A stretch of 64,000 nt of DNA from positions 165,404 to 229,403 of IMG/VR virus record IMGVR_UViG_3300001199_000001; one strand, written 5' to 3'. The notes under the pieces were generated by a model. That model was not told where the DNA came from. It did no database searches and worked only from the letters and a program-made list of their open reading frames with translations. Positions within the stretch are counted from its first letter, which is position 1. Each line of letters starts with the position of its first letter. The stretch comes from a virus. Taxonomy: Duplodnaviria > Heunggongvirae > Uroviricota > Caudoviricetes. A program made the position numbers and the translations under genes. Below are positions 2,135 to 56,137 of this stretch, piece after piece.

Positions 2135-2262
2135 CAGCGGGTTACTCCAAGCTACCCCGCCAGACCACCACCTTTCGTGACCCGTGTCAAGAAAACTGAC
2201 ACGGAATGTTCGTGATAATGACCTGCGACCTTTTTACAGGCCGGTTTCGATGACGAAATGTG

Positions 2263-2291
2263 TTGACAACTGACGCTTGTTTCCGTATGGT
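2263..2291 (+). promoter_or_regulatory. sigma70-type promoter of rtcB operon
   Basis: TTGACA-17bp-TATGGT upstream of AAGGA SD and ATG 2320. Confidence 0.7.
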
Positions 2292-2319
2292 CCGGCCTCA
2301 TTCACAGAGAACAAGGACG

Positions 2320-19444: not shown

Positions 19445-19449
19445 CTCGT

Positions 19450-20082
19450 TTATCCGTTCAGGACGGCTTCGGCGTTGATCCGGTTGACGCCGCGCCGCTG
19501 GAAGTTCTGGTTGGCGACTTCGGTTGTGTTCGCAGCGATGGCGCGGGTCGCGTCTTCGATAACGAAGGTGTCGAACCGCAGACCGATGGCGTCGAGCGCC
19601 GTGAAGGCCACGCAATAGTCATAGGCTAGGCCAACGCAGAATACGCGATGGTAGCCCTTCTCGCGTAAGATTTTGTCGAGGCCGGTACCGACCTTCTTGT
19701 CATTGTCTTGGAACGCCGAATAGCTGTCGACCTTGGGGTCCATGCCTTTGCGGATGATGGCGAAGGCTGGATTGGTATTCAGCCCCTTGACGAACTCAGC
19801 GCCTTTCGTGCCCTGGACGCAGTGATCTGGCCAATAGGTGTCGCCGGTCTCCGAATTCTGCGCGAACGCCTCAACGCCTGCTGTGGAAGCGAAAGATGTG
19901 TGGCCCTTCGGGTGCCAGTCTTGGGTCAGCACGACGCCCGCGCCCGCAGCGGCGAAGTGATCGCTCAGTTTGTTGATGATCGGCACGATTTGATCGCCGT
20001 CTTCGACAGCAAGGGCGCCGCCGGGGATGAAATCGTTCTGAACATCGATGATGAGCAAAACGTCGGTTTTGAGAATTTCCAT
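19450..20082 (-). CDS. pncA: nicotinamidase/pyrazinamidase
   Basis: IDVQNDF.PGGAL, QDWHP, WPDHCVQGT, KG...DSYSAF, GLAYDYCV. Confidence 0.96.
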   Translation of the reverse strand: MEILKTDVLLIIDVQNDFIPGGALAVEDGDQIVPIINKLSDHFAAAGAGVVLTQDWHPKGHTSFASTAGVEAFAQNSETGDTYWPDHCVQGTKGAEFVKGLNTNPAFAIIRKGMDPKVDSYSAFQDNDKKVGTGLDKILREKGYHRVFCVGLAYDYCVAFTALDAIGLRFDTFVIEDATRAIAANTTEVANQNFQRRGVNRINAEAVLNG

Positions 20083-20094
20083 GAGGTGTGGTCC

Positions 20095-20244
20095 TTAGAA
20101 TTTACGAAGAAGAGTATCGAGACGGGAGTTCTTGGCGGCGGTTGAGATCACCGCCTTCATGTTACCTTTCGATCCGCTAGAGAGGCGCTTGCCGGGCGTG
20201 TCCTTCTCCTGTGCAGGTGGATCGACGGGAGTCTTTTTTGTCAT
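20095..20244 (-). CDS. small basic hypothetical protein inside NAD operon
   Basis: 49 codons from ATG 20244 fill the pncB-pncA gap. Confidence 0.45.
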   Translation of the reverse strand: MTKKTPVDPPAQEKDTPGKRLSSGSKGNMKAVISTAAKNSRLDTLLRKF

Positions 20245-20260
20245 GCTGATCTTTCTCTTG

Positions 20261-21643
20261 TTAGACGACAACCGGAGCATCTTTGACGCCTTCGACGCCA
20301 AATACACGACGATAGCGTTCGATCTCTTCAGTCGGGCCGGTGGCCTTCGTGAAGTTGTCCGACAGTTTGACAGCCGGGCGCCCGTCAGCATCCTTGACCT
20401 TGCAGACGATGCTGATCGGCTTCATGTTGTCAGGGTCAACCGGATCACAGCCGATGAAATCGTTCGTCAGCATGGTCCCCCAGCCGTAGCCGTCACGGAT
20501 TCGGCCATGGAAGTAGTTGTATAGCTCGACGATATCGACGCCCTGCGGCTCGAACCCATCGATCTTTACGTCAAGGCCATCGCTGAAGAGAACAAGCTTG
20601 TCGGTCGGAGCGATGCTCTTGCTCAGCCACCAATCGATGATCTCATCCCCGGCGACAAACGGGTCTTTTGAATCCGGGCGGTGTCCCGTCCAATAGGTCA
20701 GAAATTCCGGCGCGTTCTTCAGAAACTGGGTGGTTCCAAAGGTGTCGGGCAGGCATACCAGCAGGTTGCCGCGATAGTCGTCCTGCCAGAGCTTCAGCAC
20801 CTTATACTGTGCCTGCGCAAGGTCGTGATCTCCCTGCGCCAGCGCGGCGACGGCCATCGGTAATTCGTGAGCGTTGGTTCCCTTGGCGTCGAGGCCGTGC
20901 CTATAGGCAAGGTAGGCGTTCGACGTGCCGGTAAACCGCTTGCCGAGCACTTCCTTCATCATCAGCACGCAGAATTCCTGCCACAGGAAGGAGTGGCGGC
21001 GGCGTGTGCCGAAATCCGTGATGCTCAGTTCCGGAAGGGTGGCGAGCCGTTGGAGTTTCTTGAACAGTTTGACCTTGGCCTGAGCATACATGATGTCAAG
21101 ACGCCACTTCGGCATCGTCGCCAACTTCTTGCGATAACGAAGCTCGTTGACGATGCACATGGCGAAGGTTTCCCAGAGGGTCGTCTCCAGCCAGGGACCG
21201 TGGAAGGTCAACACAATCTGACCCGTCGTCTCGTGGATCGGATGGCCGAAACCGTCGTCCTCGACCAGAACTTCATCACTGAACTCATGTTCAAGACGAT
21301 AATCACTCAGTTTGAACGAATGCCGCAGGTAATCCATGTAGCCCGGCGCGAAGATTCCGTCCTGCCCGTAGAACTTGTTGCCCTCCAACCAGATCAGGAA
21401 GCTTTCTTCCCACTCCAGGGTCTTGACGTGGTCAAGCTGGCGTCGCAGTTCGTCGATATCGATATCGTCCGCAAGCCGCACAGACTTGGTGCGGTTCTTG
21501 AGGCCGAAGGTCGCGGTCGTGCCGTAGAAATTTCGCCAGATGAACTGGTGCATCAGCAGTTTGTAGAAATCGAGATCGCCGAGGTGGCGAATGATCGGAT
21601 CGAACGGAAAACCGTGATCGTAGGCGCGTTTTGCGAAGTCCAT
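20261..21643 (-). CDS. pncB: nicotinate phosphoribosyltransferase
   Basis: DFYKLLM, TDFGTRRRHS, GTSN, GTNAHE, RPDS, FSDGLD, AVKLSD. Confidence 0.95.
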   Translation of the reverse strand: MDFAKRAYDHGFPFDPIIRHLGDLDFYKLLMHQFIWRNFYGTTATFGLKNRTKSVRLADDIDIDELRRQLDHVKTLEWEESFLIWLEGNKFYGQDGIFAPGYMDYLRHSFKLSDYRLEHEFSDEVLVEDDGFGHPIHETTGQIVLTFHGPWLETTLWETFAMCIVNELRYRKKLATMPKWRLDIMYAQAKVKLFKKLQRLATLPELSITDFGTRRRHSFLWQEFCVLMMKEVLGKRFTGTSNAYLAYRHGLDAKGTNAHELPMAVAALAQGDHDLAQAQYKVLKLWQDDYRGNLLVCLPDTFGTTQFLKNAPEFLTYWTGHRPDSKDPFVAGDEIIDWWLSKSIAPTDKLVLFSDGLDVKIDGFEPQGVDIVELYNYFHGRIRDGYGWGTMLTNDFIGCDPVDPDNMKPISIVCKVKDADGRPAVKLSDNFTKATGPTEEIERYRRVFGVEGVKDAPVVV

Positions 21644-21644
21644 C

Positions 21645-22769
21645 TTAATTGCCCCCGTCGAGATGACGCAGCATTTTGTGGATGATCTTATAGTGATCTT
21701 CCATCATCTGAGACCGCTGCACGTCAGCCAGTGGGACCCATACGGCGCGCTTTGCGTCCGAGCCCGCCTTGATCTTCGGCAACGCCGTCATTTCACGCAC
21801 GCGCTTCTGAAATTGAGCCGTGGTCTCTCCGACCCGTTGCGGCGGGACTTCCGGCTGAAGGTGGAAAAGAAAGGCGGTGGTGATCGTCCGCTTCCGGGTT
21901 GAGCGCATCGGGTGATCGAAGACCTCTTGATGCTTCAGCGCCTTTTTAAGGATCGGCTCCGGCACGGCGATTCGCGTTTCTTCCATCAATTCCTTAATGA
22001 CGGTCTGATAGAAGGTGTCGTTCTTTTCGACGTGACCGCCCGGCAGCGCCCAGAGGCCCTTACATGGATAATCCCTCCGCTGAACCAGCAGGACATGGCC
22101 CGCTTGGATAACGACGGCGTCTGAGGTGACGAAATTTGGTGGATATTGTGCGGTATTCGTCTTCAGGTATTTGAGCATGAATTCCCGCTCGGCGCGTAGC
22201 TCGGCGAACGCGTCTGTATCCTGAAACTTCAAAAGAAAATCCTGTACCGCAACCGGGACTTGTTGGCTGATGGGCGTGCCAATCCAGCCGACGGTCGAGC
22301 GCCGTACGTCCCTCGCCAGAACGATTTCACGGATCGCGGTGGCGTCTAACTGTTCGTGATTGGGGACTTCAATCGTGTCCCACTGGGGGAACATCTTGAT
22401 GTAATAGGAGGACTGGTCCTTGGAGTGACCGACGAGGCTTATCCAAGCATTTTCAGGAAGGTCGAAGTGGTCGAGCGCCCCTTCCGCACATTGCTGGATT
22501 GAAACGGTCCAGTCGTCATCGCTGTAGTTTGAATCCGGTTGAGCGGCGAAATCCACCCGCCCTCGTTCTTCTGCCGTTAGGCTGTCTTGGATCATACGCA
22601 TCCGTTCAACATCGGTGAACGGAAGCACGTCCCAGCGGCGGGGCTGGTCGGCGGAGCCTATAACGATGAGGAGGTAGCGGCACTGCGCCAAGGCGGCTCT
22701 GATGACCGCAAGATGACCGTTATGAAACGGTTGGAAGCGTCCAATGAAGACGCCGAGATCGTAATGCAC
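21645..22769 (-). CDS. bifunctional NMN/NaMN adenylyltransferase - Nudix ADP-ribose pyrophosphatase (NadM-Nudix)
   Basis: GRFQPFHNGH (HxGH), ATAIR, Nudix box ALPGGHVE...KELMEET, GSDA, EDH. Confidence 0.94.
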   Translation of the reverse strand: MHYDLGVFIGRFQPFHNGHLAVIRAALAQCRYLLIVIGSADQPRRWDVLPFTDVERMRMIQDSLTAEERGRVDFAAQPDSNYSDDDWTVSIQQCAEGALDHFDLPENAWISLVGHSKDQSSYYIKMFPQWDTIEVPNHEQLDATAIREIVLARDVRRSTVGWIGTPISQQVPVAVQDFLLKFQDTDAFAELRAEREFMLKYLKTNTAQYPPNFVTSDAVVIQAGHVLLVQRRDYPCKGLWALPGGHVEKNDTFYQTVIKELMEETRIAVPEPILKKALKHQEVFDHPMRSTRKRTITTAFLFHLQPEVPPQRVGETTAQFQKRVREMTALPKIKAGSDAKRAVWVPLADVQRSQMMEDHYKIIHKMLRHLDGGN

Positions 22770-31474: not shown

Positions 31475-32500
31475 TCAAGAATTAGACGGTCGTTGGAAAA
31501 TGCCGCGCGAAAGCTGCGCCGCGTCTAGTTCAAGCACCTCGCCCATGGCGTAATAGAACGACAAGGGTGCTAATTCGTGCGTATCCCAATCTCCGTTGAT
31601 GAACAGGTCGATCAGGCGTTCAGGCAGCCCTGCCTCGAACATGGTTTTGACGTTGTCGCGAGCGTTGATGATATCGGTATCGCTCTTCCCAACCTTTCTT
31701 AGGCTCCGAGCCTCCACGCCATCTTCGAGGTCATAGGGTGTTTCAACGATCTCGCTGAGGAGTTCGAAATATCGAGTCTTGGCGCGCTTGAACCGGCGGA
31801 CGAATTCTTCCATGGCTTCAGTCATGATCGGACTTAACGCGATCTCTGCGGGAGAAATTTTACGCCAGTGGAGCGCGTAATAATACGCCGTGCCGATCCT
31901 ACCGAAGAGGTCTTCAAGCTCGGCCTCGATATCCGGTAGAAACCCCCAGGTGGCGGTAAAATTCAAGGCCATGTTGCGCCCTGTTAGAGGGAGCGCCGCT
32001 AGTCTGTCTCCTCTCAGGTGATAGGTAGTCGTATTTTGCAAGACAATCTTGTCGATATCTTCAGATAGCGACAGGACGCGTTTGATGCTCCGTAACGCGT
32101 CAGTGTCTTGAGTCTTGTCGATCCCAAAATGCTTCAGGATGCTGGAGAGACTCGAAAAGCCGCCTACCTCTTCTAGGAAGATCAAAATCTGGCGCTCGAC
32201 GGTATCCGTATATTTGACCCGCTTTGCATTCCCAGTGCCGAGCGTATAGACCCCCCGCGAACGTTTATGGATGGAGCCTCGTCGCTCTAGGTTGAGGAGG
32301 GTGTTGGCTATAAGCTTACGATTTTCCGGGAGGCTCCAATTATCGTCCCCCCAATGGTCTATGATGAACTGCGCATCAGCACCGTCGTCTTCGGCGGCAG
32401 CAACGGCATCGATCAGTTTCTGTCGAAACTGTTCTTGCGTGCAGGAAACCCCTTTGATCACTTTAGCGACCACCGGGCGAGCTTTACGTTGTGCGGTCAT
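31475..32500 (-). CDS. hypothetical protein with possible winged-helix domains
   Basis: 341 aa; L.RRG.I....RGVY. Confidence 0.65.
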   Translation of the reverse strand: MTAQRKARPVVAKVIKGVSCTQEQFRQKLIDAVAAAEDDGADAQFIIDHWGDDNWSLPENRKLIANTLLNLERRGSIHKRSRGVYTLGTGNAKRVKYTDTVERQILIFLEEVGGFSSLSSILKHFGIDKTQDTDALRSIKRVLSLSEDIDKIVLQNTTTYHLRGDRLAALPLTGRNMALNFTATWGFLPDIEAELEDLFGRIGTAYYYALHWRKISPAEIALSPIMTEAMEEFVRRFKRAKTRYFELLSEIVETPYDLEDGVEARSLRKVGKSDTDIINARDNVKTMFEAGLPERLIDLFINGDWDTHELAPLSFYYAMGEVLELDAAQLSRGIFQRPSNS

Positions 32501-33354
32501 GCGATTCCCAGGGCGTTCAAGAGGAGGGCTTCAGCTTCAGTCGCGAAGGTTTTATCGAGCGGCATCCGGTCCATACCTTCGCTTTTAACCCACGCCATTT
32601 GAGTCTCGATGAATTCGTCCATCACAGCAATGCGCTCGCCGAAACCGATCTCCCCCACCGACATCTTCCGGCGCAGTAGTTTGTCGACCTCGGCACGCAG
32701 ATCAGCCGGGATGATGTCCTGACTAAGGAGATGCGGCATGGTCATCGGCGGGACCTCGTTGAATTCCCTGATCCAGCTAATCGCAATCGATCCCCGCAGC
32801 GCGTAGAGATACTTCTTCAAATTGACATTCGTCAGGCCTTTAACGACCATGCCGGACTGCCGGTAGTTCTCCATTTCCACCGCCGTCGGGCGATTGCCGA
32901 TTTCTCCAGCGTAGCACTTCTGGGTCAGACCGAAGTAGTGACGTGCAGAAGCTTGCGGCGTTGCATGTCTCTTGATCAGCGTCCGCAGTTTGGCGGCGAA
33001 GGGGCCTGACTCACGATAGATCAACGGGCTCGACAGCCACTCAGCCACGGTCGCGTTGCCTTTGACCAGTAGCTTGATCGCCTTACGCAGGTCCCAGCCG
33101 TTGACATCCCATAGGCCGTCGATGGGGCGCTCGATCACATCGCGAGGATCGTCAATGCCAAGATAGGTCGGCAGCGGGCGCACATAGAAGAACCGCACGT
33201 CATAGTCGGAATCAGGCGACGGGAAGCCCCACGCCCGCGAACCGCTTTCGACAGCAAACAGGATGGTGACTTCCTCACGCGCCTCGATCTGGCCAAGCCG
33301 GATATTGGCCTCGCCGTAGATATCAAGCGGGATGGTCGGTGCTGTGAAGCTCAT
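32497..33354 (-). CDS. Pol-beta superfamily nucleotidyltransferase (YcgL/RlaP-like)
   Basis: ESGSRAWGFPSPDSDYDVRF, GWDLRKA, EWLSSP, KKYLYALR; start moved to ATG 33354. Confidence 0.88.
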   Translation of the reverse strand: MSFTAPTIPLDIYGEANIRLGQIEAREEVTILFAVESGSRAWGFPSPDSDYDVRFFYVRPLPTYLGIDDPRDVIERPIDGLWDVNGWDLRKAIKLLVKGNATVAEWLSSPLIYRESGPFAAKLRTLIKRHATPQASARHYFGLTQKCYAGEIGNRPTAVEMENYRQSGMVVKGLTNVNLKKYLYALRGSIAISWIREFNEVPPMTMPHLLSQDIIPADLRAEVDKLLRRKMSVGEIGFGERIAVMDEFIETQMAWVKSEGMDRMPLDKTFATEAEALLLNALGIA

Positions 33355-34139
33355 CAGACAAGGTCCCCGAAAATAAAACCCGGTGTGCGCACCAGCCAAT
33401 TATCATCACGCCCGGTGTGAAAGGTTTTCATCTCGTTACGAGTGATGATTGCGTCTTCTGGCGGCTGCTTAGACGCAGGAATTCGCAGGCGCTCATCAGC
33501 AGATAGTCGTCGTTTGACGGCCTCCTTACGGACCCAAGTGCCGCGCCGAAAAGCGTCGGGGTAGGCCTCGAAATCCACGTCCTTTTGAGCAAGCATATCG
33601 ATCATCGTCGGGACGTTTTTCTGATGCATTTCCTTAGCCGAGTGATGATGACGGCAAGCCATGCTGACGGCATTACGCTCAGCGTCGAGTACGCGCCAAA
33701 AGAACATGTTGGCGACTTCATACGGTTTAGGCAGTTGAAGAACACGCGCGTCAAAGGTCGGATAGCGGTCTTCAAATGGCTCCCAACCCCGGATGGCGCG
33801 GGTGAACGCAGCGGTCGCCATCGCCGCTAGGACGCTGGTCATCTTGGTGATCTTGCCGTCGAAGAAGATCGAGTCGGTGTAATCCTTCGCTAGCCACGTC
33901 AAGCTGATTTCGTCGGACTGGGTATAGCCGATGACGGCGTGGGTTTTATCGACAAGATATTTGGTAGTCTCGACCATGGCGGCCGACATCCGCGCATCGA
34001 AAGGCTTGTCCATGCCTTTCGTCAGCCGCGAGAAGCCCTTGCCGTCGATGCGAGCATAAACTGGCAGCATCGGCAGGAACAACCTGCCGGTTTCCTGCCG
34101 TTCATAAGCCTTCATGCGGTCGCCGAGATCATCCCTCAT
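33354..34139 (-). CDS. Thg1-like tRNA(His) guanylyltransferase / 3'-5' polymerase
   Basis: RMKAYE, RIDGKGFS, GYTQSDEIS, FDARV, WR..DA.RN. Confidence 0.93.
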   Translation of the reverse strand: MRDDLGDRMKAYERQETGRLFLPMLPVYARIDGKGFSRLTKGMDKPFDARMSAAMVETTKYLVDKTHAVIGYTQSDEISLTWLAKDYTDSIFFDGKITKMTSVLAAMATAAFTRAIRGWEPFEDRYPTFDARVLQLPKPYEVANMFFWRVLDAERNAVSMACRHHHSAKEMHQKNVPTMIDMLAQKDVDFEAYPDAFRRGTWVRKEAVKRRLSADERLRIPASKQPPEDAIITRNEMKTFHTGRDDNWLVRTPGFIFGDLV

Positions 34140-34314
34140 CTGCCCATTTTAAAAGGCGGCGTGTCACAAGTCAACACATGAGTGTTTGTCAAGCGAACAA
34201 TTCCTTAATCCCGCCACAAATCAGTGAGATGGTCTAGGCTCGGCGCGAAGGGGCGGGCGATTGGGGCGAGTCACTTTAAGTGTACTCGCCCCACTTTCAG
34301 TGGGAGTATCCATT

Positions 34315-37191
34315 TTGCCTTATTTTAAGTTCAACGGCACCACTGCGCCAGAAAGTGCGGCCGGAGCCAATATTTACAACATCACGACAGCCGTTAACGG
34401 TACAAACAGCGCAGAAAGCTTCTGGCTGAATGGTGGCGGATCGGCGGCCGGAGGCGGGGGCGATGATACCTATTACTTCCAAGGAGGCACGGGCGTCCTC
34501 GAACTAGCTGGCGGGGGTGTGGACACCATTTCCGCGTGGCAAAAAATCGATCTTTCGAAATATGCCTTCGTCGAGAACGGGTCTACGAACGAATGGATTC
34601 TTGGTAACGATCTGGATAACATCGTAAGCGGAGCCCAAGTCTACGGCGGTAAGGGTCAAGACGTGCTGGTCGGTAATTCCGGCAAGACGGTATTTATCGT
34701 TCACGCTGGCGAAGGTAACGACGCCATTTACAATTTCAACACGGCCGAAGATGTCGTCAGAATCAAATCCACAATCACGGATATTAGTCAGCTTACCCTA
34801 ACACAACAGGGCTCTGACACCGTTGTCGGTTTTGGATCGGACGCCTTCGTCCTCCGTGGCGTCACCGCCTCATCCCTCACCGCAGCAAACTTCAACCTTG
34901 CATTGGACTATAACAAGCTCGGGGCTTTGACGCTTAGCGAAGAGTTCAACACACTTAACCTCTGGAATCCGGACACGGATACCGGTCTGTGGAGCAAGAG
35001 TTTCGGCTATAGCGACAATGGCATTGAGTCGTTGATCGGTAACGGCGAGAAGCAAAATTACAACCGGGACGCGGATAACCTTACCCTAAACAGCGACGGC
35101 ACTTTAAGCCTGATCGCTCACAAGACGACCGACCCATTCTCACTCGCAAATGGTTATGAATACACCTCGGGTATGATCAGCAGCCGCGATTATGCGCCTT
35201 GGGTTGAGGGTAAACCGACCGGGTCGCCACAGTTTGTCCAGCAATACGGCTATTTTGAAATGCGGGCAGAAGTGCCGGTAGAAGCAGGAACATGGCCTGC
35301 CTTCTGGTTGATGCCTGCCGATTGGACTTGGCCGCCTGAACTGGACATCATGGAGATGGTTGGTTCTGATCCGGGAACGGTTCACACCAGCCAGCATACG
35401 AATGAAACCGGCGGTCATACAGGTGTCGGATTCGGGAATGCCATCCCTGGGATTGCTGCCGGTTTCCATACCTTCGGCGTGATGTGGACCGCCGAGACCT
35501 TGACCTTCTATGTCGATAGCATCGAGGTCTTTAAGACCCGTACGCCGGACGACATGCATAAACCTATGGGTATTATCGCCAACCTCGCCTTAGGCGGTGG
35601 TTGGGCTGGACCGGTTGATCTAGGCGCCGACGGCAAAGCGGAAATGAAGATCGACTATATCCGCGCTTACGCCCTGAAGGACGATACGAACCCGCCACCG
35701 CCGGTCGAGACGACCATCAGCCTCGGTACGGGTCAGACCGTCACGGAAGGCGATAGCGGTGATAAGATCATGACCTTTACCGTCTCTCGCTCTGGCGACC
35801 TCACGCACGCCTCCACGGTCAACTACGCTGTGACGGCGGGAACGGCGACAGTGGGTGACTACACGGCTTCACCCTCAGGCACGCTTTCCTTTGCCATTGG
35901 CGAGGCGTCGAAGACCATTCAGGTCACGGTCAAAGGTGACACCGTGGTCGAATCCGACGAGTCCTTCACGGTGAATCTTTCAGGCCCGACGGGCGGTAAG
36001 TTGGGTACGGCCAGTGCGACCGGAGTCATTTTAAATGATGACTCTGCTGCACCTCCTCCTCCCCCACCGCCACCTCCGCCTCCGGGTGATACGGTCATCA
36101 GCTTCGCTGCGGACCAAAGCATCACCGAAGGTGATAGCGGCGAGAAAGTCGTCACCGTTACGGTCAATCGGACGGGTGATTTGTCGGTCTACTCCATCGT
36201 CGATACATGGACAGACATCGGATGGAGCGGAGCTTCAGCAGACGACGTTGTTGGCTCGCCGGGAGGATCGGTCTATTTCCACGCCGGGGAAAGCACCAAG
36301 ACGCTCGATATTCGCATCAAGGGCGACACGGTGGTTGAAGGCGACGAAACCTTCCACATCTATATGAGCAATCCTCGTGATGCTGTGATCGGCGATGACC
36401 GGATGGCTATCACCATCCTAAACGACGACAGCGTTGCGCCCCCGCCACCGCCTCCTCCCGCTCCCGTGATTAATCTCGGTGGCGAACAGACGGTGACCGA
36501 AGGCAACAGCGGCTCGAAGATGATGACCTTCACGGCAACCCGTACGGGTGATCTGACAGGCGTGTCGTCGGTTAACTATTGGGCTCAGTTGGGTGCTTTG
36601 GTGACCAGCGATGACTTCGTAGGAGCACCGTCAGGAACCGTGTCGTTCGCGGCGGGTGAAGCTTCTAAGACGTTCCAGATCGCCGTCAAGGGGGATACGG
36701 TCGTTGAAGCTGACGAGACTTTCAATGTCTTCCTTGATACCGTTAATGGAGCCGTTCTCGGAACCGCAGCCTCAAAGGGTCACATCCTGAATGACGATGT
36801 GGCCGCGCCGCCTCCTCCCCCGCCGACTCCCGTTACCTTGATAGGCACTAAGGGGGCAAACACCCTCGTTGGCAAGGATGGTAACGATAACCTTTATGGC
36901 CTGGGCGGTAACGATAAGCTCGAAGGTGGCAAGGGTGATGACGTTCTGACCGGCGGTGCTGGTGATGACACCTTCATCTTCCGTCAGGGTTTTGGTGACG
37001 ACACCATCGTTGACTTCTATGCGGGTGGAAAGACAGATGAACTTCAGTTCATCGGCTTCGGCTCCACACGACCGACTTCCACGGTTCAGATGGGCGACAA
37101 CGTCCTGATTTCATTCGCCTCGGGGGACAGCATCACACTGCTGGACACCTACCTCGGCGATCTGAGGACCAGCGACTGGATTTGGGGTTAA
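34315..37191 (+). CDS. secreted GH16 beta-glycanase with RTX repeats and three Calx-beta domains (ExsH-like)
   Basis: GH16 WPAFWLMP...PPELDIME; GGxGxD repeats at both ends; three TEGDSG...GDTVVE.DE.F...I.NDD repeats separated by poly-Pro linkers; start moved to TTG 34315 (GGGAG SD). Confidence 0.88.
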   Translation: MPYFKFNGTTAPESAAGANIYNITTAVNGTNSAESFWLNGGGSAAGGGGDDTYYFQGGTGVLELAGGGVDTISAWQKIDLSKYAFVENGSTNEWILGNDLDNIVSGAQVYGGKGQDVLVGNSGKTVFIVHAGEGNDAIYNFNTAEDVVRIKSTITDISQLTLTQQGSDTVVGFGSDAFVLRGVTASSLTAANFNLALDYNKLGALTLSEEFNTLNLWNPDTDTGLWSKSFGYSDNGIESLIGNGEKQNYNRDADNLTLNSDGTLSLIAHKTTDPFSLANGYEYTSGMISSRDYAPWVEGKPTGSPQFVQQYGYFEMRAEVPVEAGTWPAFWLMPADWTWPPELDIMEMVGSDPGTVHTSQHTNETGGHTGVGFGNAIPGIAAGFHTFGVMWTAETLTFYVDSIEVFKTRTPDDMHKPMGIIANLALGGGWAGPVDLGADGKAEMKIDYIRAYALKDDTNPPPPVETTISLGTGQTVTEGDSGDKIMTFTVSRSGDLTHASTVNYAVTAGTATVGDYTASPSGTLSFAIGEASKTIQVTVKGDTVVESDESFTVNLSGPTGGKLGTASATGVILNDDSAAPPPPPPPPPPPGDTVISFAADQSITEGDSGEKVVTVTVNRTGDLSVYSIVDTWTDIGWSGASADDVVGSPGGSVYFHAGESTKTLDIRIKGDTVVEGDETFHIYMSNPRDAVIGDDRMAITILNDDSVAPPPPPPPAPVINLGGEQTVTEGNSGSKMMTFTATRTGDLTGVSSVNYWAQLGALVTSDDFVGAPSGTVSFAAGEASKTFQIAVKGDTVVEADETFNVFLDTVNGAVLGTAASKGHILNDDVAAPPPPPPTPVTLIGTKGANTLVGKDGNDNLYGLGGNDKLEGGKGDDVLTGGAGDDTFIFRQGFGDDTIVDFYAGGKTDELQFIGFGSTRPTSTVQMGDNVLISFASGDSITLLDTYLGDLRTSDWIWG

Positions 37192-37309
37192 AAGGGTCAT
37201 TCGTCCGCCTCGCTATCATCGCGTAAAAGCGCTTTAGCAGCACTCCAAAGGCAGAACAGTGCTAAGCCCGCGAACGCCAAGGCTTGCGGTAGAAGTACTA
37301 TGCTTACTT

Positions 37310-37747
37310 TCATACACGGCTCCCGTCAGGCCTTAAGCGTACCGGCTCTTGTTCCGGATTGCAGGGATGATGTCCCTGTTCGACAAAATATTTGTCGCGC
37401 TTAATCGCCTTTCCGTTTGGCAGGTAGAATGAAAATCGCCGGACGGCAGGCCCGGTTATCAGGAATGTCACAGTTCCAGGCATGACCTGCGTAACCTTGT
37501 GCCGATACTCGGCCCGGCGAAAACGCAGTGATCCCCATCTGAGGGTATCGCGCCCTGCTGGACTTTCGTCGACATAACCACCCCACAGCACAAGGGTCAA
37601 AAACCAGTGCTTATGGTCGTGAAAAGCACGCCTGTCGTCGTCGGCGAACCACCGATGAAATCGGATGGCGAAAGCGCCGAAATCGACCCCCAGCAGGTGG
37701 AAGTAGGGACATTCTGGCAACCCGCCGCGATGATTGAGAAACTTCAT
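37310..37747 (-). CDS. cupin-fold phage protein
   Basis: FH....DD.R.FHDH..WF..LVL.GGY. Confidence 0.7.
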   Translation of the reverse strand: MKFLNHRGGLPECPYFHLLGVDFGAFAIRFHRWFADDDRRAFHDHKHWFLTLVLWGGYVDESPAGRDTLRWGSLRFRRAEYRHKVTQVMPGTVTFLITGPAVRRFSFYLPNGKAIKRDKYFVEQGHHPCNPEQEPVRLRPDGSRV

Positions 37748-38235
37748 AGCTTGATGATCGAGGCGCTGACCGGCTTGCCTTGAAATTCAAAACGATCTTC
37801 GAGTCTGAATCGCTCGCCACCGTACACCGACTGCACGATGTCGGCTTGATCATCATGTAGAAGCGCGACAATCGCCGAGTACTGCTTGAACGCGCAGCGT
37901 GTTTTCGCCTGTTCGACGAATTTGAAACCCAATCCCAACGGCGGGTTCATCAAACAAACTGTGAAAAGCCTCTGGCCTGGAACCATAATAGGATCGCGAA
38001 GGAAGTCCGCGTGCCGGACATCGGCAAAATGCTGCCGCAAGAACGCGCAACGAGATGCATTCAACTCAATGCAGGTAACATCGGCCCCTGCTTCCTTGGC
38101 GAGAAACGCTAGGCTGCCACACCCGGCTCCGGGAACGAGGACCCGGTCGTAGAAGTCAAGTCCGCCCACTAGCCTCACCATCTGGAGCGCTATGTGGAGC
38201 GGCGTAGACGTAGCTTCAAAGACGACCTGTTCCAT
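37744..38235 (-). CDS. SAM-dependent methyltransferase-like protein (N6/N4 type, NPP motif)
   Basis: VLVPGAGCGSL, IELN, ADFL, MNPPL. Confidence 0.7.
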   Translation of the reverse strand: MEQVVFEATSTPLHIALQMVRLVGGLDFYDRVLVPGAGCGSLAFLAKEAGADVTCIELNASRCAFLRQHFADVRHADFLRDPIMVPGQRLFTVCLMNPPLGLGFKFVEQAKTRCAFKQYSAIVALLHDDQADIVQSVYGGERFRLEDRFEFQGKPVSASIIKL

Positions 38236-38249
38236 ATCTTCCTATAAAA

Positions 38250-38493
38250 TGGTCCGAGGGGCGGGATTCGAACCGACGACCTCCGAGTCTTCATCCAGCA
38301 ACTTCAGGTATGTCTCATAGCGTTCTTATCCGTTCACAAGGTAGCGACCCTTGCTACTAGGTCCGGATATCTACGAGTTTTCGAGCCTCAAATCACCACA
38401 GTCAGGCTGAAGTGGGCCTAACCGTTACGTAATCCTACTCTCTTCCGTCTGTTTACGCTGGCCTCGGCGCTCTACCAACTGAGCTACCCCCGG
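38250..38493 (-). tRNA. tRNA-Phe(GAA)-like gene interrupted by a 168-nt insertion in the anticodon loop
   Basis: CCGGGGG/CCCTCGG-A-CCA acceptor, GCTC/GAGC D arm, CCGAG/CTCGG anticodon stem, TTCGAAT T loop; removing 38295-38462 gives 76 nt with loop ATGAAGA. Confidence 0.8.
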
Positions 38494-38502
38494 CTGATTG
38501 TT

Positions 38503-38538
38503 AGATTAGTAGGAGTTGACGACGTTGTCAACTCCTAC
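38503..38538 (-). promoter_or_regulatory. promoter of interrupted tRNA overlapped by perfect 12-bp inverted repeat
   Basis: TTGACA-17-TAATCT; GTAGGAGTTGAC-N6-GTCAACTCCTAC. Confidence 0.7.
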
Positions 38539-38547
38539 GAACCAAAT

Positions 38548-38886
38548 TTAGGCTGCCTGCTTCATTTCGCCCAGTGGACGCAGATGGGCGAACCGCTGGC
38601 GAGCTTCACCTTGTAAGGGTTCAGTCGCCAGTGCGGTGTAGCCGGTGTCATAGTCCGGTTCGTGGAAGCAGTGGTAGCGAATGCCGTCCTTTTCGAGATC
38701 GCGCTTCAGCTTGATCAGGTCCCGTTCCGAATCGATCCCGAACAAGACGAAATTGGTCTTGCCGTTCGGGTAGTCGTCACGAGAAAGTTCAAGCCCAAGC
38801 TCGAACGTCGCATGGGCGGTCTGGATGACCTGAACCCGTGGGCTCAGGTCGGTTCGGATGAACAGGTAAAGGTAATGCTCGGGCAT
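38548..38886 (-). CDS. peptidyl-tRNA hydrolase Pth2/PTRHD1-like protein
   Basis: YLFIRTDL...IQTAHA, F.EPD...TALAT.P. Confidence 0.78.
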   Translation of the reverse strand: MPEHYLYLFIRTDLSPRVQVIQTAHATFELGLELSRDDYPNGKTNFVLFGIDSERDLIKLKRDLEKDGIRYHCFHEPDYDTGYTALATEPLQGEARQRFAHLRPLGEMKQAA

Positions 38887-39257
38887 TAGTCCTCCATCCT
38901 GATTTCATCGCAGAGGTAAGTCGCCAACGCCCTATAGCGCGAGGTCAGTTCGTTATCCGCTGTCGGCATGTTGAACGGCGTGCCGAAGTCCTTTGCCTGC
39001 TTAAGCCGCAGATAGAGGGTTCGTCGACCGTGCTGTTTTGACGGCGTGAAGGCTGCGCGGAGCTTGCGCAACGCCCATGCTTCGGCCTCATCCGATCCGA
39101 GCTTGTCGGTCAGATTGATGGACTGGGTGATGATGAACTGAATATAAGCCGAATCGCTGTTGAGCTTGGCATAAGCCAAGGTCTTCCAAGCAGTGCGATT
39201 GGCGCGGTAGGCGGCCTTTGTGTCGGCGGCCTCAAGGGTAGTCGTTTCCATTTTCAT
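38886..39257 (-). CDS. hypothetical protein
   Basis: 123 aa, TAATG-coupled to the Pth2-like gene. Confidence 0.65.
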   Translation of the reverse strand: MKMETTTLEAADTKAAYRANRTAWKTLAYAKLNSDSAYIQFIITQSINLTDKLGSDEAEAWALRKLRAAFTPSKQHGRRTLYLRLKQAKDFGTPFNMPTADNELTSRYRALATYLCDEIRMED

Positions 39258-39340
39258 GATCCTTTGCTGAATTGAATAGTCTTCGAGCGAAGGATCGATC
39301 AGGGTGGTTCTAGCTTATACCGACATCAGTCGTACCTCTC
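39258..39340 (-). promoter_or_regulatory. candidate translational attenuator: Met-Ser-Val-stop minigene plus SD-sequestering hairpin
   Basis: GAGAGG SD, ATG TCG GTA TAA at 39326-39315; GATCCTTCGCT (39296-39286) complementary to AGCAAAGGATC (39268-39258). Confidence 0.6.
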
Positions 39341-39347
39341 TTAAAGT

Positions 39348-39425
39348 TGGCGCCCGTGACAGGAGTCGAACCTGCAAACCTTTCTGGTGTATGCCCAGAC
39401 TGCTCCGCCGTTGAGCTACACAGGC
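39348..39425 (-). tRNA. tRNA-like gene with non-canonical anticodon loop (identity undetermined)
   Basis: GCCTGTG/CACGGGC-G-CCA acceptor, GCTC/GAGC D arm, GCAGG-TTCGACT-CCTGT T arm; anticodon arm GTCTG-GGCATACAC-CAGAA lacks U33; own promoter TTGACA-17-TATATT at 39469-39441. Confidence 0.78.
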
Positions 39426-39466
39426 TTAATGTGTGAGATGAATATAGACGCTTGGATTAACCCTGT

Positions 39467-39549
39467 CAAGGGTTTTTAGTCAACACCTCTAGAAGAAGGT
39501 CTTGACGCCAAGGGTTTTTAGTCAACACCTCTAGAAGAAGGTCTTGACG
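39467..39549. repeat. 41-bp direct tandem duplication (period 42)
   Basis: CAAGGGTTTTTAGTCAACACCTCTAGAAGAAGGTCTTGACG at 39467-39507 and 39509-39549. Confidence 0.95.
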
Positions 39550-39923
39550 ACATCATCGTACGGACAGCCTTCAGCGAAATGCTCTCCATTCATGTCGATG
39601 GGTCCGATCCCCAAAGCGGTGATGACCGCCGGATAATGGGGGCGAACGCGTTCCTTGACCAAAGCAACGCCGCAGATCGGCTTATAGTCCTCGTACAACT
39701 GGAGGAGAATTGCTTCAGGGGCTGTGTACATGTCCTTGATCATCGGTTTTCGTGAATACCGAAACACCTCCACTTCCTTTTTATCGAAGCGTAGTTCCGA
39801 ATCCCAATAGGCTCGCATCATCGCCTCAGAGGATGCTTGATGTAGGCCAAGCTTGCGGGCTCTCGCCGCTTTGATCGCTTCAGCAGAAAGTACGCAGATC
39901 ATTCTCGGTCTATACCCCGTCAT
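39531..39923 (-). CDS. diverged Pth2-like paralogue
   Basis: colinear with 39924-40397 (MICVLS.EA.KAA, AYWD.E.RF, APE, LYEDY, TA.GIGP) but lacks GK..AQ..H and D.G.T motifs. Confidence 0.7.
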   Translation of the reverse strand: MTGYRPRMICVLSAEAIKAARARKLGLHQASSEAMMRAYWDSELRFDKKEVEVFRYSRKPMIKDMYTAPEAILLQLYEDYKPICGVALVKERVRPHYPAVITALGIGPIDMNGEHFAEGCPYDDVVKTFF

Positions 39924-40397
39924 TTAAATGAACATCTTGATCTGGTCGTAATACGGCTTGTTCGCCGCAAGCCGCTCGCCCTTCAGGTGCAGGGGGCCGA
40001 TACCGACGGCGGTCAAGGTCTCGCCGTCGAACACCGTCAGACCTCGGTCGACAACGCGGGTTATGCCGCCTTCGTTGACGTAGTCTTCATAGAGCATGTT
40101 GACGACCGTCTCAGGCGCGATCAGGGTAATCTTACCAGCCCCGCCCTTGGTGATGTCACGGTAAGCTTTCGCCGTCTTCGGGAAACGCTTCTCAGCGTCC
40201 CAGTAAGCATGCAGGAAGGCGTGTCCTGATTGGGCATGCATCTTGCCTCTGTTGCCCTTGGCGGCCTTCACAGCCGCTTCAGAGAAGATGCAGTACATTT
40301 TATAGTCAAGGACCCCTTTCGGGGGTGGCTCCTTGCCGGTCAGCTTATGCCAAATGTAGAGGATGATCGAAAGTATCCACCGTCCGGTCTCTTCCAT
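39924..40397 (-). CDS. peptidyl-tRNA hydrolase Pth2 family protein
   Basis: GKMHAQSGHA, KITL, VVDRGLT, TAVGIGP; hydrophobic N-terminus. Confidence 0.85.
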   Translation of the reverse strand: MEETGRWILSIILYIWHKLTGKEPPPKGVLDYKMYCIFSEAAVKAAKGNRGKMHAQSGHAFLHAYWDAEKRFPKTAKAYRDITKGGAGKITLIAPETVVNMLYEDYVNEGGITRVVDRGLTVFDGETLTAVGIGPLHLKGERLAANKPYYDQIKMFI

Positions 40398-40753
40398 TAG
40401 AACCTCTCGTTCCAGAGAGCATCCCAGCCCTTCTCGGTAATTACGCCCTTAGTGTAGCGTAGGTCATATCCGAGTTTGATGTTTCGAGAGGCGTCGGGAT
40501 CGCGCGCCAATAGCCACCCCTTGGCGTAAGGCACTCGTACAGTCTTAACGTAGCCACGCATTAACAGCCATTGAACATCGGCGTCCTTCAACGCCATGCC
40601 GCCTTCGCTATGAAACCGAAGGCGGTCTTTGGCTGCGCGCATCAGGAGCTTAGCTCGACGCAGCCGCGCTGGTACGGAGAGTGCCCCGTACCAGCGTTTG
40701 TTATGGTCGTTTAGTTCTGCCCACGATAGGGCGTTGCCACCCCCGCTAGACAT
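40397..40753 (-). CDS. hypothetical protein
   Basis: 118 aa, TAATG coupling; ITEKG motif. Confidence 0.6.
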   Translation of the reverse strand: MSSGGGNALSWAELNDHNKRWYGALSVPARLRRAKLLMRAAKDRLRFHSEGGMALKDADVQWLLMRGYVKTVRVPYAKGWLLARDPDASRNIKLGYDLRYTKGVITEKGWDALWNERF

Positions 40754-41187
40754 TAGACACCCGCCTTGAGGATCGCCGAGACCTGCTGGCCAGTGACCCG
40801 GCCCGGATACATCTCATTGAGATAGGCCAAGATCGCCTTCATGTTCTTCATGGAACGATCTTCAAATGCCGCCGAGATCGATTTACGAACCTCGTCATCA
40901 CTGACCGCTTGCGGTAGATATTCCGCGAGGATGGCAGCTTCGTCTTTCGCCTTGTCGTCCTCAGGACGTGCCTTCAGTGTCTCGTCGAGATTCTTGACGA
41001 ACTTGCGGATCACCGCCGTGACTTCGTCATCCGTGGTCTCACGGCCTGCATCCTTACCTACACGCTCAGCTTCCGCGACCAGCGTGGTGAGCAGAGGCGA
41101 TTTAATGCGGGCGGTCTCATCGCCTTTGATAGCCAGCTTGCGGGCGGCCAATTGGTCGGATTTGATGCGTTGAAGTAGCGTTGACAT
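40753..41187 (-). CDS. GatB/YqeY domain protein
   Basis: I..D...ARK, TDDEV..VIRK, E..IL.EYLP. Confidence 0.85.
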   Translation of the reverse strand: MSTLLQRIKSDQLAARKLAIKGDETARIKSPLLTTLVAEAERVGKDAGRETTDDEVTAVIRKFVKNLDETLKARPEDDKAKDEAAILAEYLPQAVSDDEVRKSISAAFEDRSMKNMKAILAYLNEMYPGRVTGQQVSAILKAGV

Positions 41188-48473: not shown

Positions 48474-48896
48474 TTAACGCCAACGGGCTTTGAGCTTTTT
48501 GGTGCCGTAATTATAGTTCACAGGTAATCCAGCATTAGGGTGCATCAGTTCCAGCCGGTGCGCCTTGCCTACCACAGCGCCTTTCGACCGTTGCATAAGA
48601 TTACAGATCGCCAGCACATGAAGTCCCGCTGCATAATAATCGCGCAGGCGGATGATGTCGTCATCTGTCCACGGTTTTGAGGGGAAGTTGGGTGCAACGT
48701 CCTTACGACTGCGCTTTAAGCGCTTGCTCGCGCCGCGTTCCAGGCGAAGGTCGCGCGCCTTGCTCCAGATCGCGATCCGACTAACACCGAACTCTGCGGC
48801 GATGTCGTCGACATGTACGCCGTCGCGATACGACCGGCGTAGTTGCTCTATCTTTTGGATTGTCCAGAAACGCGGACGATTGCGCCAGTGGGCCAC
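48474..48896 (-). CDS. protein with two tandem GcrA-N/Myb-like HTH repeats
   Basis: WTIQKIEQLRR..IAAEFGVSR.AI..KA and WTDDDI..LR...RSKGAVVGKAHRL. Confidence 0.72.
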   Translation of the reverse strand: MAHWRNRPRFWTIQKIEQLRRSYRDGVHVDDIAAEFGVSRIAIWSKARDLRLERGASKRLKRSRKDVAPNFPSKPWTDDDIIRLRDYYAAGLHVLAICNLMQRSKGAVVGKAHRLELMHPNAGLPVNYNYGTKKLKARWR

Positions 48897-54682: not shown

Positions 54683-55199
54683 CCCCAGTTGTCGGGCGAA
54701 CGGCTTACACAGCAGCTTCAGCGCGCCGACGATCAGCCCGTCGATAAACCTTATCGGAGCCAGGAGTACGCTAGCTAAGCTGGTGACGTAAGCGTGTACA
54801 CGGAAGCGCCTAGACGGATCGTAGGCGGCATTCTCAGAGCGAATGGGGCTCGGCTGCCCGGAACGCGTGGCGCGCTCCTGAGGGCCTTCTAGCGGGTGGC
54901 TTGATGGGGTCGGGTTTATAGCAGTATTCTCCTTGGTGATTTATTATAAACCACGTTAGGAGAATGTCAACACCATGAATATGGGTCCGGCGAGAGATCA
55001 GCCGTTACCGGTGTGCATGGGAGGGACCTAGGATTCAACACTCAATCCGGTTGCCTAGACGGGACCACCCAAGGCTTTATCCCGCTTTCTCGGCTTATCT
55101 CCCGGCCTAGGAACCCGGTACATCCGCCTGTCTTGTTGCCCATTTGGGCGAATTCGATGTGATGACGCTGCTATAGCCGTGCGCACAGCCTTGCATCAA

Positions 55200-55272
55200 G
55201 TCAGTCGAAGAGGATTCGAACCTCTGGCCTCATCCTCTACGGACGCGCTCTCCCACTGAGCTACCAACCGAC
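55200..55272 (-). ncRNA. tRNA-like module, normal order, no CCA, 5-nt anticodon-position loop
   Basis: GTCGGTTGG/TCGACTGAC stem, TA-GCTC-AGTGGGA-GAGC, CGTCC-GTAGA-GGATG, AGAGG-TTCGAAT-CCTCT. Confidence 0.75.
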
Positions 55273-55326
55273 ACGTCATCACACTTTTCGGCCGGACTTT
55301 GCTAGCTCTATCGGGCCTACCTATGC

Positions 55327-55399
55327 GGGACTGCTCTACCCTCTGAGCTACGGTGCAACCTCTCGGCGGCCCGGTGGGGCTCGAACCCACGTCTTTCCC
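55327..55399 (-). ncRNA. circularly permuted tRNA-like module (T arm - capped acceptor - D arm; YrlA-like)
   Basis: GTGGG-TTCGAGC-CCCAC, acceptor capped by GCC-GAGA-GGT, TA-GCTC-AGAGGGTA-GAGC, closed by GGGA/TCCC. Confidence 0.78.
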
Positions 55400-55704
55400 T
55401 ACTCGTTGCCCGTTCGGGCGAAACTTTGGGACGATCTACCGGTCCGGCTAGAAACCCCCACGTGTGAGGTAACCAATACCTTCGCGGCGGCGAGGCTAAC
55501 GTCCCTCGAAGCCTTCTACTCGCTTTCCCCGATCTTTCCCGTCCCTTGAAAAGCGCTTTTCGCAGGACGTTCTCACACCGGTTATTCGCCTACACCGTTT
55601 TTGATTCGGTTCGACTTGCCAGCGACCTTTTCAGTGAAGCTGACCAGAAACTTGAACTTACGCCAACGGACCGCCACCCAACCGGACGAATTGCACGTCA
55701 TCGC

Positions 55705-55785
55705 GGCCATGATGCTTCTACCTTTAGACCACCTCCCGGTGCCCGGTTGGTGGGCGGGGATCGAACCCGCTTTACAACGATGGCC
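55705..55785 (-). ncRNA. second circularly permuted tRNA-like module (YrlA-like)
   Basis: GCGGG-TTCGATC-CCCGC, CCGG-GCA-CCGG cap, TG-GTCT-AAAGGT-AGAA D-like arm, closed by GGCCAT/ATGGCC. Confidence 0.68.
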
Positions 55786-56067
55786 CATCTTTGCTGGGCT
55801 GTACTATTCCAAGGCCTTTGGAACGCCTGTAGACGATCCGCTGGCGTAAGTTCAAACTACTTTCCAGAAGGCTCGCGGATGCTCATCCCGCGAATCAACG
55901 CCTTTCGGACTCCCCGCGCTCATAGGGTGTGTACACCACCCTACTCCCGACGGATCGGAGTGTCCGCACTGCGGTATCCACCCACGTCGCCCTAGTCGGC
56001 CGCTCTCTCGTTAACCCCGGCAGAGGTTGTAAGCGTTTGAGCTAGCCTTCTGGAAAACAGTTTTGAC

Positions 56068-56137
56068 TGTCAAAGATCGAGGAGCCCGTTGCCGTTCTCC
56101 ATGGTCTTAAGATAGCAAAGGTTGGAGAGGATGTCAA
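56068..56137 (-). promoter_or_regulatory. promoter plus boxA-like antitermination element of the RNA locus
   Basis: TTGACA-17-TATCTT (56137-56109); GATCTTTGACA (56078-56068) resembles rrn-leader boxA. Confidence 0.65.

Follow-up and report, generated by a model that had tools for sequence, protein, structure and literature searches.

A phage tRNA-like gene with a 168-nt insert in its anticodon arm is one long form of an undescribed RNA family

The locus and its gene content

The window, by which we mean the whole 64,000-nt stretch of DNA that was analyzed, corresponds to C1:165404-229403 of a virus record that consists of a single contig of 278,859 bp. On its minus strand it carries a CCA-ending tRNA-like gene of 244 nt (38493-38250), followed by genes for a methyltransferase and a cupin. 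A sequencing-run contig spans the tRNA-like gene without any difference, this being the only run with the DNA and possibly its source. The features of the locus are:

39348..39425, minus strand: second odd tRNA-like gene, with a 9-nt loop GGCAUACAC, a Val-type UAC register and G73
38503..38531, minus strand: likely promoter, with -35 TTGACA (38531-38526), a 17-nt spacer and a weak -10 TAATCT (38508-38503)
38463..38493, minus strand: 5' tRNA part with acceptor strand (C1), D arm and 5' strand of the anticodon stem (ARAGORN; covariation in 14 long forms)
38295..38462, minus strand: 168-nt insert with one unpaired G, closing helix CCAGCG/UGCUGG and two long arms (folds; covariation)
38398..38425, minus strand: hairpin with loop CCACUUCA (folds; CUUC-loop counterparts in the phages Bajun and Colossus/PW)
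38314..38377, minus strand: second insert arm, with hairpin loop GUCGCUA at its tip (predicted fold)
38288..38294, minus strand: 7-nt bulge AUGAAGA, positions 32-38, with the GAA triplet at 38292-38290
38250..38287, minus strand: 3' tRNA part with anticodon stem, variable loop, T arm and acceptor strand (G72, A73, CCA)
37744..38235, minus strand: minimal amino-methyltransferase of 163 aa, motif NPP, no separate target-recognition domain
37310..37747, minus strand: cupin of 145 aa, overlapping the methyltransferase stop

The first-pass annotation had proposed a tRNA of 31 and 45 nt interrupted at 31/32 by an insert at 38295-38462, and both coordinates and anatomy are correct, on the minus strand. 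The 5' part covers positions 1-31 and ends in G31, while the sequence 3' of the insert (38294-38250) ends in ACCA and has one C-C mismatch in its T arm. With intron search at the default threshold, ARAGORN reports tRNA-Phe(gaa) i(32,168); the gene is called neither by ARAGORN without intron search nor by Rfam. When the tRNA helices are enforced, the insert folds into two long arms on a 6-bp closing helix, preceded by one unpaired G, and AUGAAGA is left unpaired. The closing helix, which had been noticed previously, is real and covaries in relatives: it lies at 38461/38300, and all 5 closing pairs of the long-form alignment show two-sided changes. Among the other pairings suggested earlier, ATCCG/CGGAT is part of the predicted fold, whereas ACTTCAG/CTGAAGT and GTAGC/GCTAC are possible only as alternatives. 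ACTTCA is located in a hairpin loop, and a nested fold that forces its pairing is about 12 kcal/mol worse (-66.9 vs -78.5). The CUUCA of the 38398-38425 loop could pair with either UGAAG of the anticodon bulge or CUGAAGU within the insert, and the 7-nt loop GUCGCUA is also present in Colossus/PW copy 2. Folding energy is modest on its own (z = -2.3 for the insert and -0.79 for the whole gene).

A dedicated promoter had also been claimed and is supported in part. Its -35 box is a perfect TTGACA, but the -10 box is weak and missing from the consensus scan list. The promoter stretch lies inside a perfect 12-bp inverted repeat (38538-38509), and TTGAC(A/G) boxes lie 5' of most of the relatives inspected by eye.

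The methyltransferase gene has its own AGGA (38243-38240) and an ATG 14 nt past the CCA. Its predicted structure (pLDDT 93) is a bare catalytic domain, whose nearest folds by structure comparison are the RNA amino-methyltransferases Erm38, METTL5, PH1948, TrmN and KsgA; PHROG labels it a DNA enzyme, related to the DNA methyltransferase domains of large proteins. The cupin is barely detected by Pfam, although its model is confident (pLDDT 96.6) and matches metal cupins weakly, with ergothioneine dioxygenase as the best (E ~1e-5). It has the invariant residues H31, D37, D38, H43, H45, D60 and H83, and its family comprises 129 clusters at E up to 1e-30.

Several other features lie in the vicinity. 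Genes of tRNA care surround the RNA at 32497-41187 (minus strand) and 2260-3540 (plus strand), including three PTH2-like ORFs (38548, 39531, 39924), Thg1, RlaP, a YqeY-like gene and RtcB. The tRNA-like gene at 39348-39425 has a strong promoter (39469-39441), is called Tyr(ATA) by ARAGORN and, judging from its sequence, may be a Val-type short-form relative of the RNA family described below; a direct repeat of ~37 nt (39467-39540) duplicates the sequence 5' of it. An ORF-free stretch of ~1.1 kb at 55000-56100 (minus strand) contains a TTGACA-type promoter, several tRNA-like arms, a tRNA match (55201-55270) and a weak YrlA match (55308-55413, E 0.005) in a genome without Ro60. It has no phage homologues beyond the tRNA arm and is possibly a large structured RNA. 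Degenerate tRNA-like pieces also occur outside the window (C1:158000-161100) in structured-looking non-coding DNA. The window additionally encodes full-length, adjacent ribosomal proteins L11 and L1 (5792-6223 and 6226-6903, plus strand), an NAD salvage cluster of NAD synthase, NAPRTase and a NUDIX-cytidylyltransferase (17744-22769, minus strand), a GcrA homologue (48474-48896, minus strand) and a 976-aa ORF (34261-37191, plus strand) with proline runs and glycine-rich repeats, which by eye resembles a secreted glycan-active protein.

Comparison with known introns and structured RNAs

Group I introns follow a 5' exon ending in U, end in G themselves and contain P7 core motifs. The window gene resembles group I tRNA introns in having a ~150-200-nt, often G-terminal insert in the anticodon region. 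However, no U precedes its junction, a P7-type core is lacking and the insert ends pair with each other. No Rfam group I model matches 38100-39600 at E up to 10 or reaches the gathering score in 20 loci. The window insert has neither an R-like nor an S-like motif, and an S-like motif is absent from all of 25 inserts. The terminal G is likewise not invariant, since locus L049 and Bajun copy 1 differ. Group II introns begin with GUGYG, a boundary found in 0/25 inserts. A comparison of the gene with Rfam models, which had been suggested earlier, returned no group I or tmRNA score.

In the bulge-helix-bulge (BHB) described in PMC4090602, the splice sites lie in two 3-nt bulges, one on either side of a 4-bp helix. 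Both junctions of the window gene instead fall within one 1x7 internal loop, and the splicing endonuclease (PF01974) is absent from the window's genome. Archaeal BHB introns are similar in that an intron-like segment closed by a helix may occur at non-canonical positions, although those described in the same source are 11-129 nt and thus shorter than the insert here. A BHB-style cut with the 5' strand of the insert as loop was rejected, as by eye it would release a different triplet per copy. The earlier view that the insert obeys the rules of neither group I nor BHB introns was right. No RNA run was listed as containing the sequence, and no spliced joint occurs in the single DNA run, which says nothing on splicing.

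Like tmRNA, the phage RNA joins tRNA ends to a large domain at the anticodon-arm position, and its relatives overlap with reading frames. Unlike tmRNA, it keeps a full D arm (4-bp stem) and an anticodon triplet and has G3-C70 rather than G3-U70; neither Rfam nor ARAGORN calls a tmRNA, and in L055 a true tmRNA lies apart from the family RNA. The YrlA Y RNAs of PMC12135203 offer another parallel, namely a phage tRNA mimic tied to a protein, Ro60, which Colossus encodes. The phage RNA differs in its free CCA acceptor end, and neither an Rfam YrlA score nor an adjacent Ro60 gene was found. A link to Ro60 was rejected, since the gene is absent from the window's genome and from Bajun and lies >130 kb off in Colossus and PW. 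The RNA is one long form of a phage family that is undescribed and falls outside every family tested.

A phage RNA family linked to a cupin

A BLASTN search with the gene returned 24 phage records, mostly through ordinary tRNA arms. In Bajun, CcrColossus and CcrPW, the match falls in a gap without annotation 5' of the same methyltransferase gene, and each of these phages contains two tandem copies with inserts of 172-200 nt. A methyltransferase search found these three phages only (5 records), while a cupin search returned 70 records, through which two further members came to light: Rhizobium phage RHph_Y1_11 has a 152-nt insert and the loop ACGAAAA, and in Paraglaciecola GD virus 1 the anticodon-stem strands are 57 nt apart. 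For the distant cupin matches Bongo, PS3 and vB_LagS-V1, the annotation tables list no RNA gene near the cupin.

An 85-cupin profile provided the best 80 of 105 confirmed IMG/VR loci, some of them near-duplicates. Within 420 nt 5' of the cupin, a D-arm motif occurs in 19/30, 22/35 and 1/15 of these by falling similarity, compared to 3/80 downstream control stretches. A more complete parse, which extended over a longer distance at 15 methyltransferase loci, places an element 5' of the cupin in 28/30, 22/35 and 1/15 (51/80 IMG/VR loci), and five named phages have such genes as well. It yielded 60 distinct rows from 86 loci with none dropped; it missed L048, L087, L096 and the true L097 element, all of which were seen otherwise. 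Ten of the 60 rows lack A35, comprising four with 8-9-nt out-of-register loops, two resembling ordinary Leu tRNAs and four mis-parsed.

It is the cupin gene that is most tightly linked to the RNA family. The methyltransferase gene lies between RNA and cupin in one clade only, the window's own, and its loci form one branch of the cupin tree (support 96/97, 13 rows, one with a short RNA). Long inserts are found in several separate branches of this tree, whose bootstrap had not settled. Among 76 loci of the wider methyltransferase family, none has the D-arm motif within 700 nt 5' of the gene. L100 is off-pattern, with a 120-nt insert, no in-register GAA and a weak methyltransferase match. This linkage, together with the short and intermediate forms, adds to what the first-pass annotation had observed.

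Pattern scans for the 3' half (0, 2 and 5 stretches in IMG/VR, 7 in metagenomes and 2 in GTDB genomes, the GTDB loci uninspected) returned nothing except Colossus and PW, tRNAs lacking an interruption and stretches with no tRNA 5' half, and single-protein scans of IMG/VR gave no match. Searches of open full texts listed no description of the RNA or the module, although supplementary tables of motifs or tRNA introns could already list members. For Colossus, PMC3556154 gives 28 tRNA genes and states that Rfam gave no further RNA.

A structural alignment of 14 long forms reveals where the family is conserved. All invariant columns lie in the tRNA scaffold, including G34, A35 and A36, and the GAA triplet is kept in 14/14; within the insert there are none, which argues against a shared ribozyme core. 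In the acceptor, D, anticodon, closing and T helices, 93% of cells are paired, versus 32-49% in slid controls, and 21/26 pairs show two-sided change; 0/500 shuffles (which ignore relatedness) scored this high. Compensatory changes are also found within the insert of Colossus and PW copy 2. A closing helix of at least 4 pairs in the 1x7 register occurs in 9/13 long-form inserts, with a chance expectation of ~2% each.

Across the family, the anticodon-stem strands are separated by 7-9, 16, 25, 37, 57, 91-142 and 152-207 nt, a continuum in which the small stretches are plain hairpins. By eye, positions 32-33 enter the closing helix in the Val-type forms L045, L055 copy 2 and L033, leaving 34-38 alone unpaired; thus, the 31/32 boundary is not fixed. 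Some members carry a 33-nt D loop or replace the long anticodon arm with a long variable arm (L050:1679-1928, L053:1872-2119, L079:2506-2629, L098:2810-2965). The CUUC-loop hairpin is common to the window, both Bajun copies and both Colossus/PW copies, without a counterpart in the IMG/VR long forms; its loop complements U33-G37 in five copy lineages, and sites in the insert as well. A universal guide role for it was rejected, as it occurs only in Caulobacter/Brevundimonas-type copies and RHph_Y1_11, and a K-turn reading of AUGAAGA was rejected by eye because the opposite GA is missing. Colossus/PW copy 1 and Bajun copy 1 contain UUAGCGA, and the complementary loop GUCGCUA occurs in Colossus/PW copy 2 and in the window (L002:2514-3050, L001:3002-3275, window 38348-38342), with Bajun copy 2 lacking a partner; pairing between tandem RNAs is possible.

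The anticodon loop departs from that of decoding tRNAs. The decoding U-turn requires U33, which is present in 21/60 family rows versus 38/43 ARAGORN tRNAs of the genome, and a purine occupies position 32 in 29/60 rows versus 2/43. Purine 32 is no bar to decoding, however, given the uninterrupted phage tRNA-Phe genes with loop AUGAAGA (A32) at L006:1501 (minus strand; L006/L017) and L010:1247 (plus strand) and the G32 of a Colossus cluster tRNA. The triplets of the 60 rows fall into GAU (18), GAA (17), NAC (15; AAC 6, UAC 5, GAC 2, CAC 2) and others (10); A73 is present in 49/60, and position 34 varies only where position 36 is C. The identity sets given in PMC9976931 and PMC11295145 are G34, A35 and A36 for Phe, G34, A35 and U36 for Ile, and A35 and C36 for Val, all with A73, and the position-34 pattern agrees with them. 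Nearly all GAA rows (16/17) are long and lie 5' of the methyltransferase, and all 16 have C1-G72, A73 and CCA. The complete Phe identity bases (G34, A35, A36, A73) and CCA are thus found in the window and in 16/16 methyltransferase-linked long forms, whereas encoded CCA is missing in 31/41 rows without the methyltransferase. A tRNA-Pro identity based upon C1-G72 was dropped, as the genome's Leu tRNAs share this pair and many short forms have A1-U72. The 43 tRNAs called by ARAGORN in the genome include an ordinary tRNA-Phe(GAA) at C1:88717; besides the family RNA, the window's genome, Colossus and Bajun each have a GAA tRNA in their tRNA cluster. The genome also encodes a PolyA_pol-family nucleotidyltransferase.

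In many relatives the RNA overlaps with coding sequence. At 5/14 methyltransferase loci (L044, L046, L048, L053, RHph_Y1_11) no Shine-Dalgarno (SD)-led start follows the CCA, the methyltransferase frame extends back through the RNA and a conserved N-terminal L-x-A-x-x-T-P begins two bases past the CCA. SD-led starts lie inside the insert in L046, L048, L050 and L053 and 5' of the RNA in RHph_Y1_11, where the tRNA-like gene lies entirely within the annotated methyltransferase CDS, in an uninterrupted frame (L032:2749-3468). Among the closest methyltransferase homologues, 14/46 predicted N-termini match a loose translated-T-arm pattern. Short forms behave similarly: in 12/16 loci tested (L056, L064, L066, L069, L070, L074, L075, L078, L080, L082, L084, L095) a single frame covers a conserved WEPT..GG.RR peptide, the RNA and the cupin, with a 72-75-nt tRNA-like fold inside the coding sequence and the frame kept by compensating indels in 2/12. 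Excision of the whole tRNA from these mRNAs is disfavored, as it would keep the frame in 10/12 loci and break it in 2. Because frames run through the RNA in these relatives, their transcripts must retain the fold. The methyltransferase frame of the window is cut off from the RNA by a stop codon and starts at an SD and ATG of its own, and the read-through argument therefore rests on the relatives.

Possible functions of the RNA and its insert

The reading that we favor, though it could as easily prove wrong as right, is that the gene encodes an unspliced, synthetase-facing tRNA mimic partnering the methyltransferase and cupin. A 244-nt CCA-ending RNA would likely be trimmed from the transcript and stay unspliced. 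Its GAA and A73 are predicted to be presented to the host phenylalanyl-tRNA synthetase, off the ribosome, and the RNA would act as a partner of the two enzymes encoded directly behind it. The insert would presumably be an accessory domain added on the 5' side of the anticodon loop, an arrangement in which positions 34-38 could remain stacked on the stem, accessible to the synthetase, while the sheer bulk of the RNA would exclude it from the ribosome. More speculatively, the methyltransferase might modify an exocyclic amine of the RNA, with purine 37 as the obvious site, and the cupin might oxidize the RNA or its amino acid. From the sequences, we infer that selection holds the bases read by synthetases and relaxes those read by the ribosome, with the insert as an optional domain.

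By analogy, such an RNA most likely functions like the tRNA-like structures (TLS) of plant RNA viruses charged by host synthetases. As described in PMC9976931, a TLS is likewise a viral tRNA mimic that keeps the anticodon and N73 identity, is unused in protein synthesis and tolerates large stem-loop insertions. In contrast to a TLS, which lies at the 3' end of genomic RNA, the phage RNA is an internal cloverleaf encoded by a DNA gene with its own promoter; it lacks an acceptor pseudoknot, occurs as Phe, Ile and Val types and is coupled to a cupin and methyltransferase.

Support for a mimic comes from the covarying scaffold, the graded insert sizes, the triplet classes, the lost U33, the spare GAA tRNA, the frames through the RNA in relatives and the tight cupin linkage. 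The earlier suggestion of an unspliced tRNA-scaffolded RNA is therefore the one favored by the family data. Conversely, the mimic is weakened by the window's own clade, in which the 3' segment of the loop is exactly 7 nt, U33 occurs in 11/16 rows and CCA in 16/16; by joined exons that score as tRNA-Phe; and by the uninterrupted AUGAAGA genes. The generic fold matches of both enzymes, the PHROG DNA label and the lack of encoded CCA in most rows without the methyltransferase weaken it further, as does the possibility that a CUUC loop hides the triplet from the synthetase. In a broader version, advanced only tentatively, a phage-wide RNP system would use a non-decoding mimic, charged with Phe, Ile or Val by host synthetases, as the carrier or scaffold for a dedicated cupin and the domain-less methyltransferase to act upon; the recognition missing from the methyltransferase would come from the grafted RNA domain.

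Alternatively, the insert could be a new class of intron at 31/32, either cut by a nuclease yet to be named and sealed by RtcB or excised as a new ribozyme with the CUUC loop guiding the 3' junction, to leave a 76-nt tRNA-Phe with A32. We regard this as rather unlikely overall, yet it keeps some weight because the joined exons are called an ordinary tRNA-Phe, and it is strongest in the window's clade, where the exact 7-nt bulge, the frequent U33 and the existence of same-loop genes coincide. The 1x7 geometry with its closing helix far exceeds chance, identical loops occur with and without an insert (AUGAAGA in the window and L006; AGUACAU in L089 and L091), and the CUUC loop complements U33-G37. 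On the other hand, the insert has no conserved core and its sizes are graded, the boundary shifts in Val-type forms, its last base is not always G, A33 occurs in 3/16 copies of the clade and a 33-nt D loop in two, no splicing endonuclease is found and a spare tRNA-Phe is available. RtcB, which had been proposed previously to seal such an intron, is present in 4/4 genomes tested. The RtcB of the window's genome is 62-69% identical to those of phiCbK-like Caulobacter/Brevundimonas phages. However, all phiCbK-like phages listed encode RtcB, including many in which no RNA, methyltransferase or cupin was found. RtcB was thus rejected as a specific partner of the RNA, and the proposed intron retains its geometry and tRNA-Phe-scoring exons while losing this special support.

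It is also conceivable, but unlikely, that the RNA is a cis-acting, tRNA-mimicking leader of the methyltransferase-cupin mRNA, which would bind PheRS or the encoded enzymes, or be cut by RNase P, and so tune translation to the state of the tRNA pool. The thrS operator is such a synthetase-bound anticodon mimic in an mRNA. A reference title in PMC9976931 also refers to synthetases binding anticodon mimics in mRNA. In agreement with a leader, the RNA always lies on the same strand, directly upstream or overlapping, no terminator was found between it and the methyltransferase gene in a scan of the window, many relatives have frames beginning in or before the RNA with shift-and-restore indels in two WEPT loci, and most short forms lack CCA. 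A leader fits poorly with the full acceptor stem and CCA of the methyltransferase-linked long forms, with the tandem copies, and with L041 and L049, in which the RNA lies 110-500 nt or a whole ORF from the downstream start. Least probable is a decoy, shielded by its insert, that absorbs anticodon nucleases directed by the host against tRNA-Phe, which would suit the neighboring PTH2-like, Thg1, RlaP and RtcB genes (tied in PMC7824862 to repair after tRNA attack) but alone leaves the tight cupin link unexplained, or else a decaying tRNA gene gathering inserts, which the compensatory changes rule out. For the preferred mimic, the surrounding tRNA-repair genes suggest a role in counter-defense.

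Routine annotation misses these genes. Since they are carried by cultured Caulobacter phages, the question is directly testable. Either of the two leading outcomes would be new if true, whether the RNA is a tRNA mimic through which a phage enzyme module exploits host synthetases or the insert represents a class of tRNA intron distinct from both the group I and the endonuclease type. Furthermore, the RNA family offers an initial entry point for studying what a large phage cupin family acts upon.
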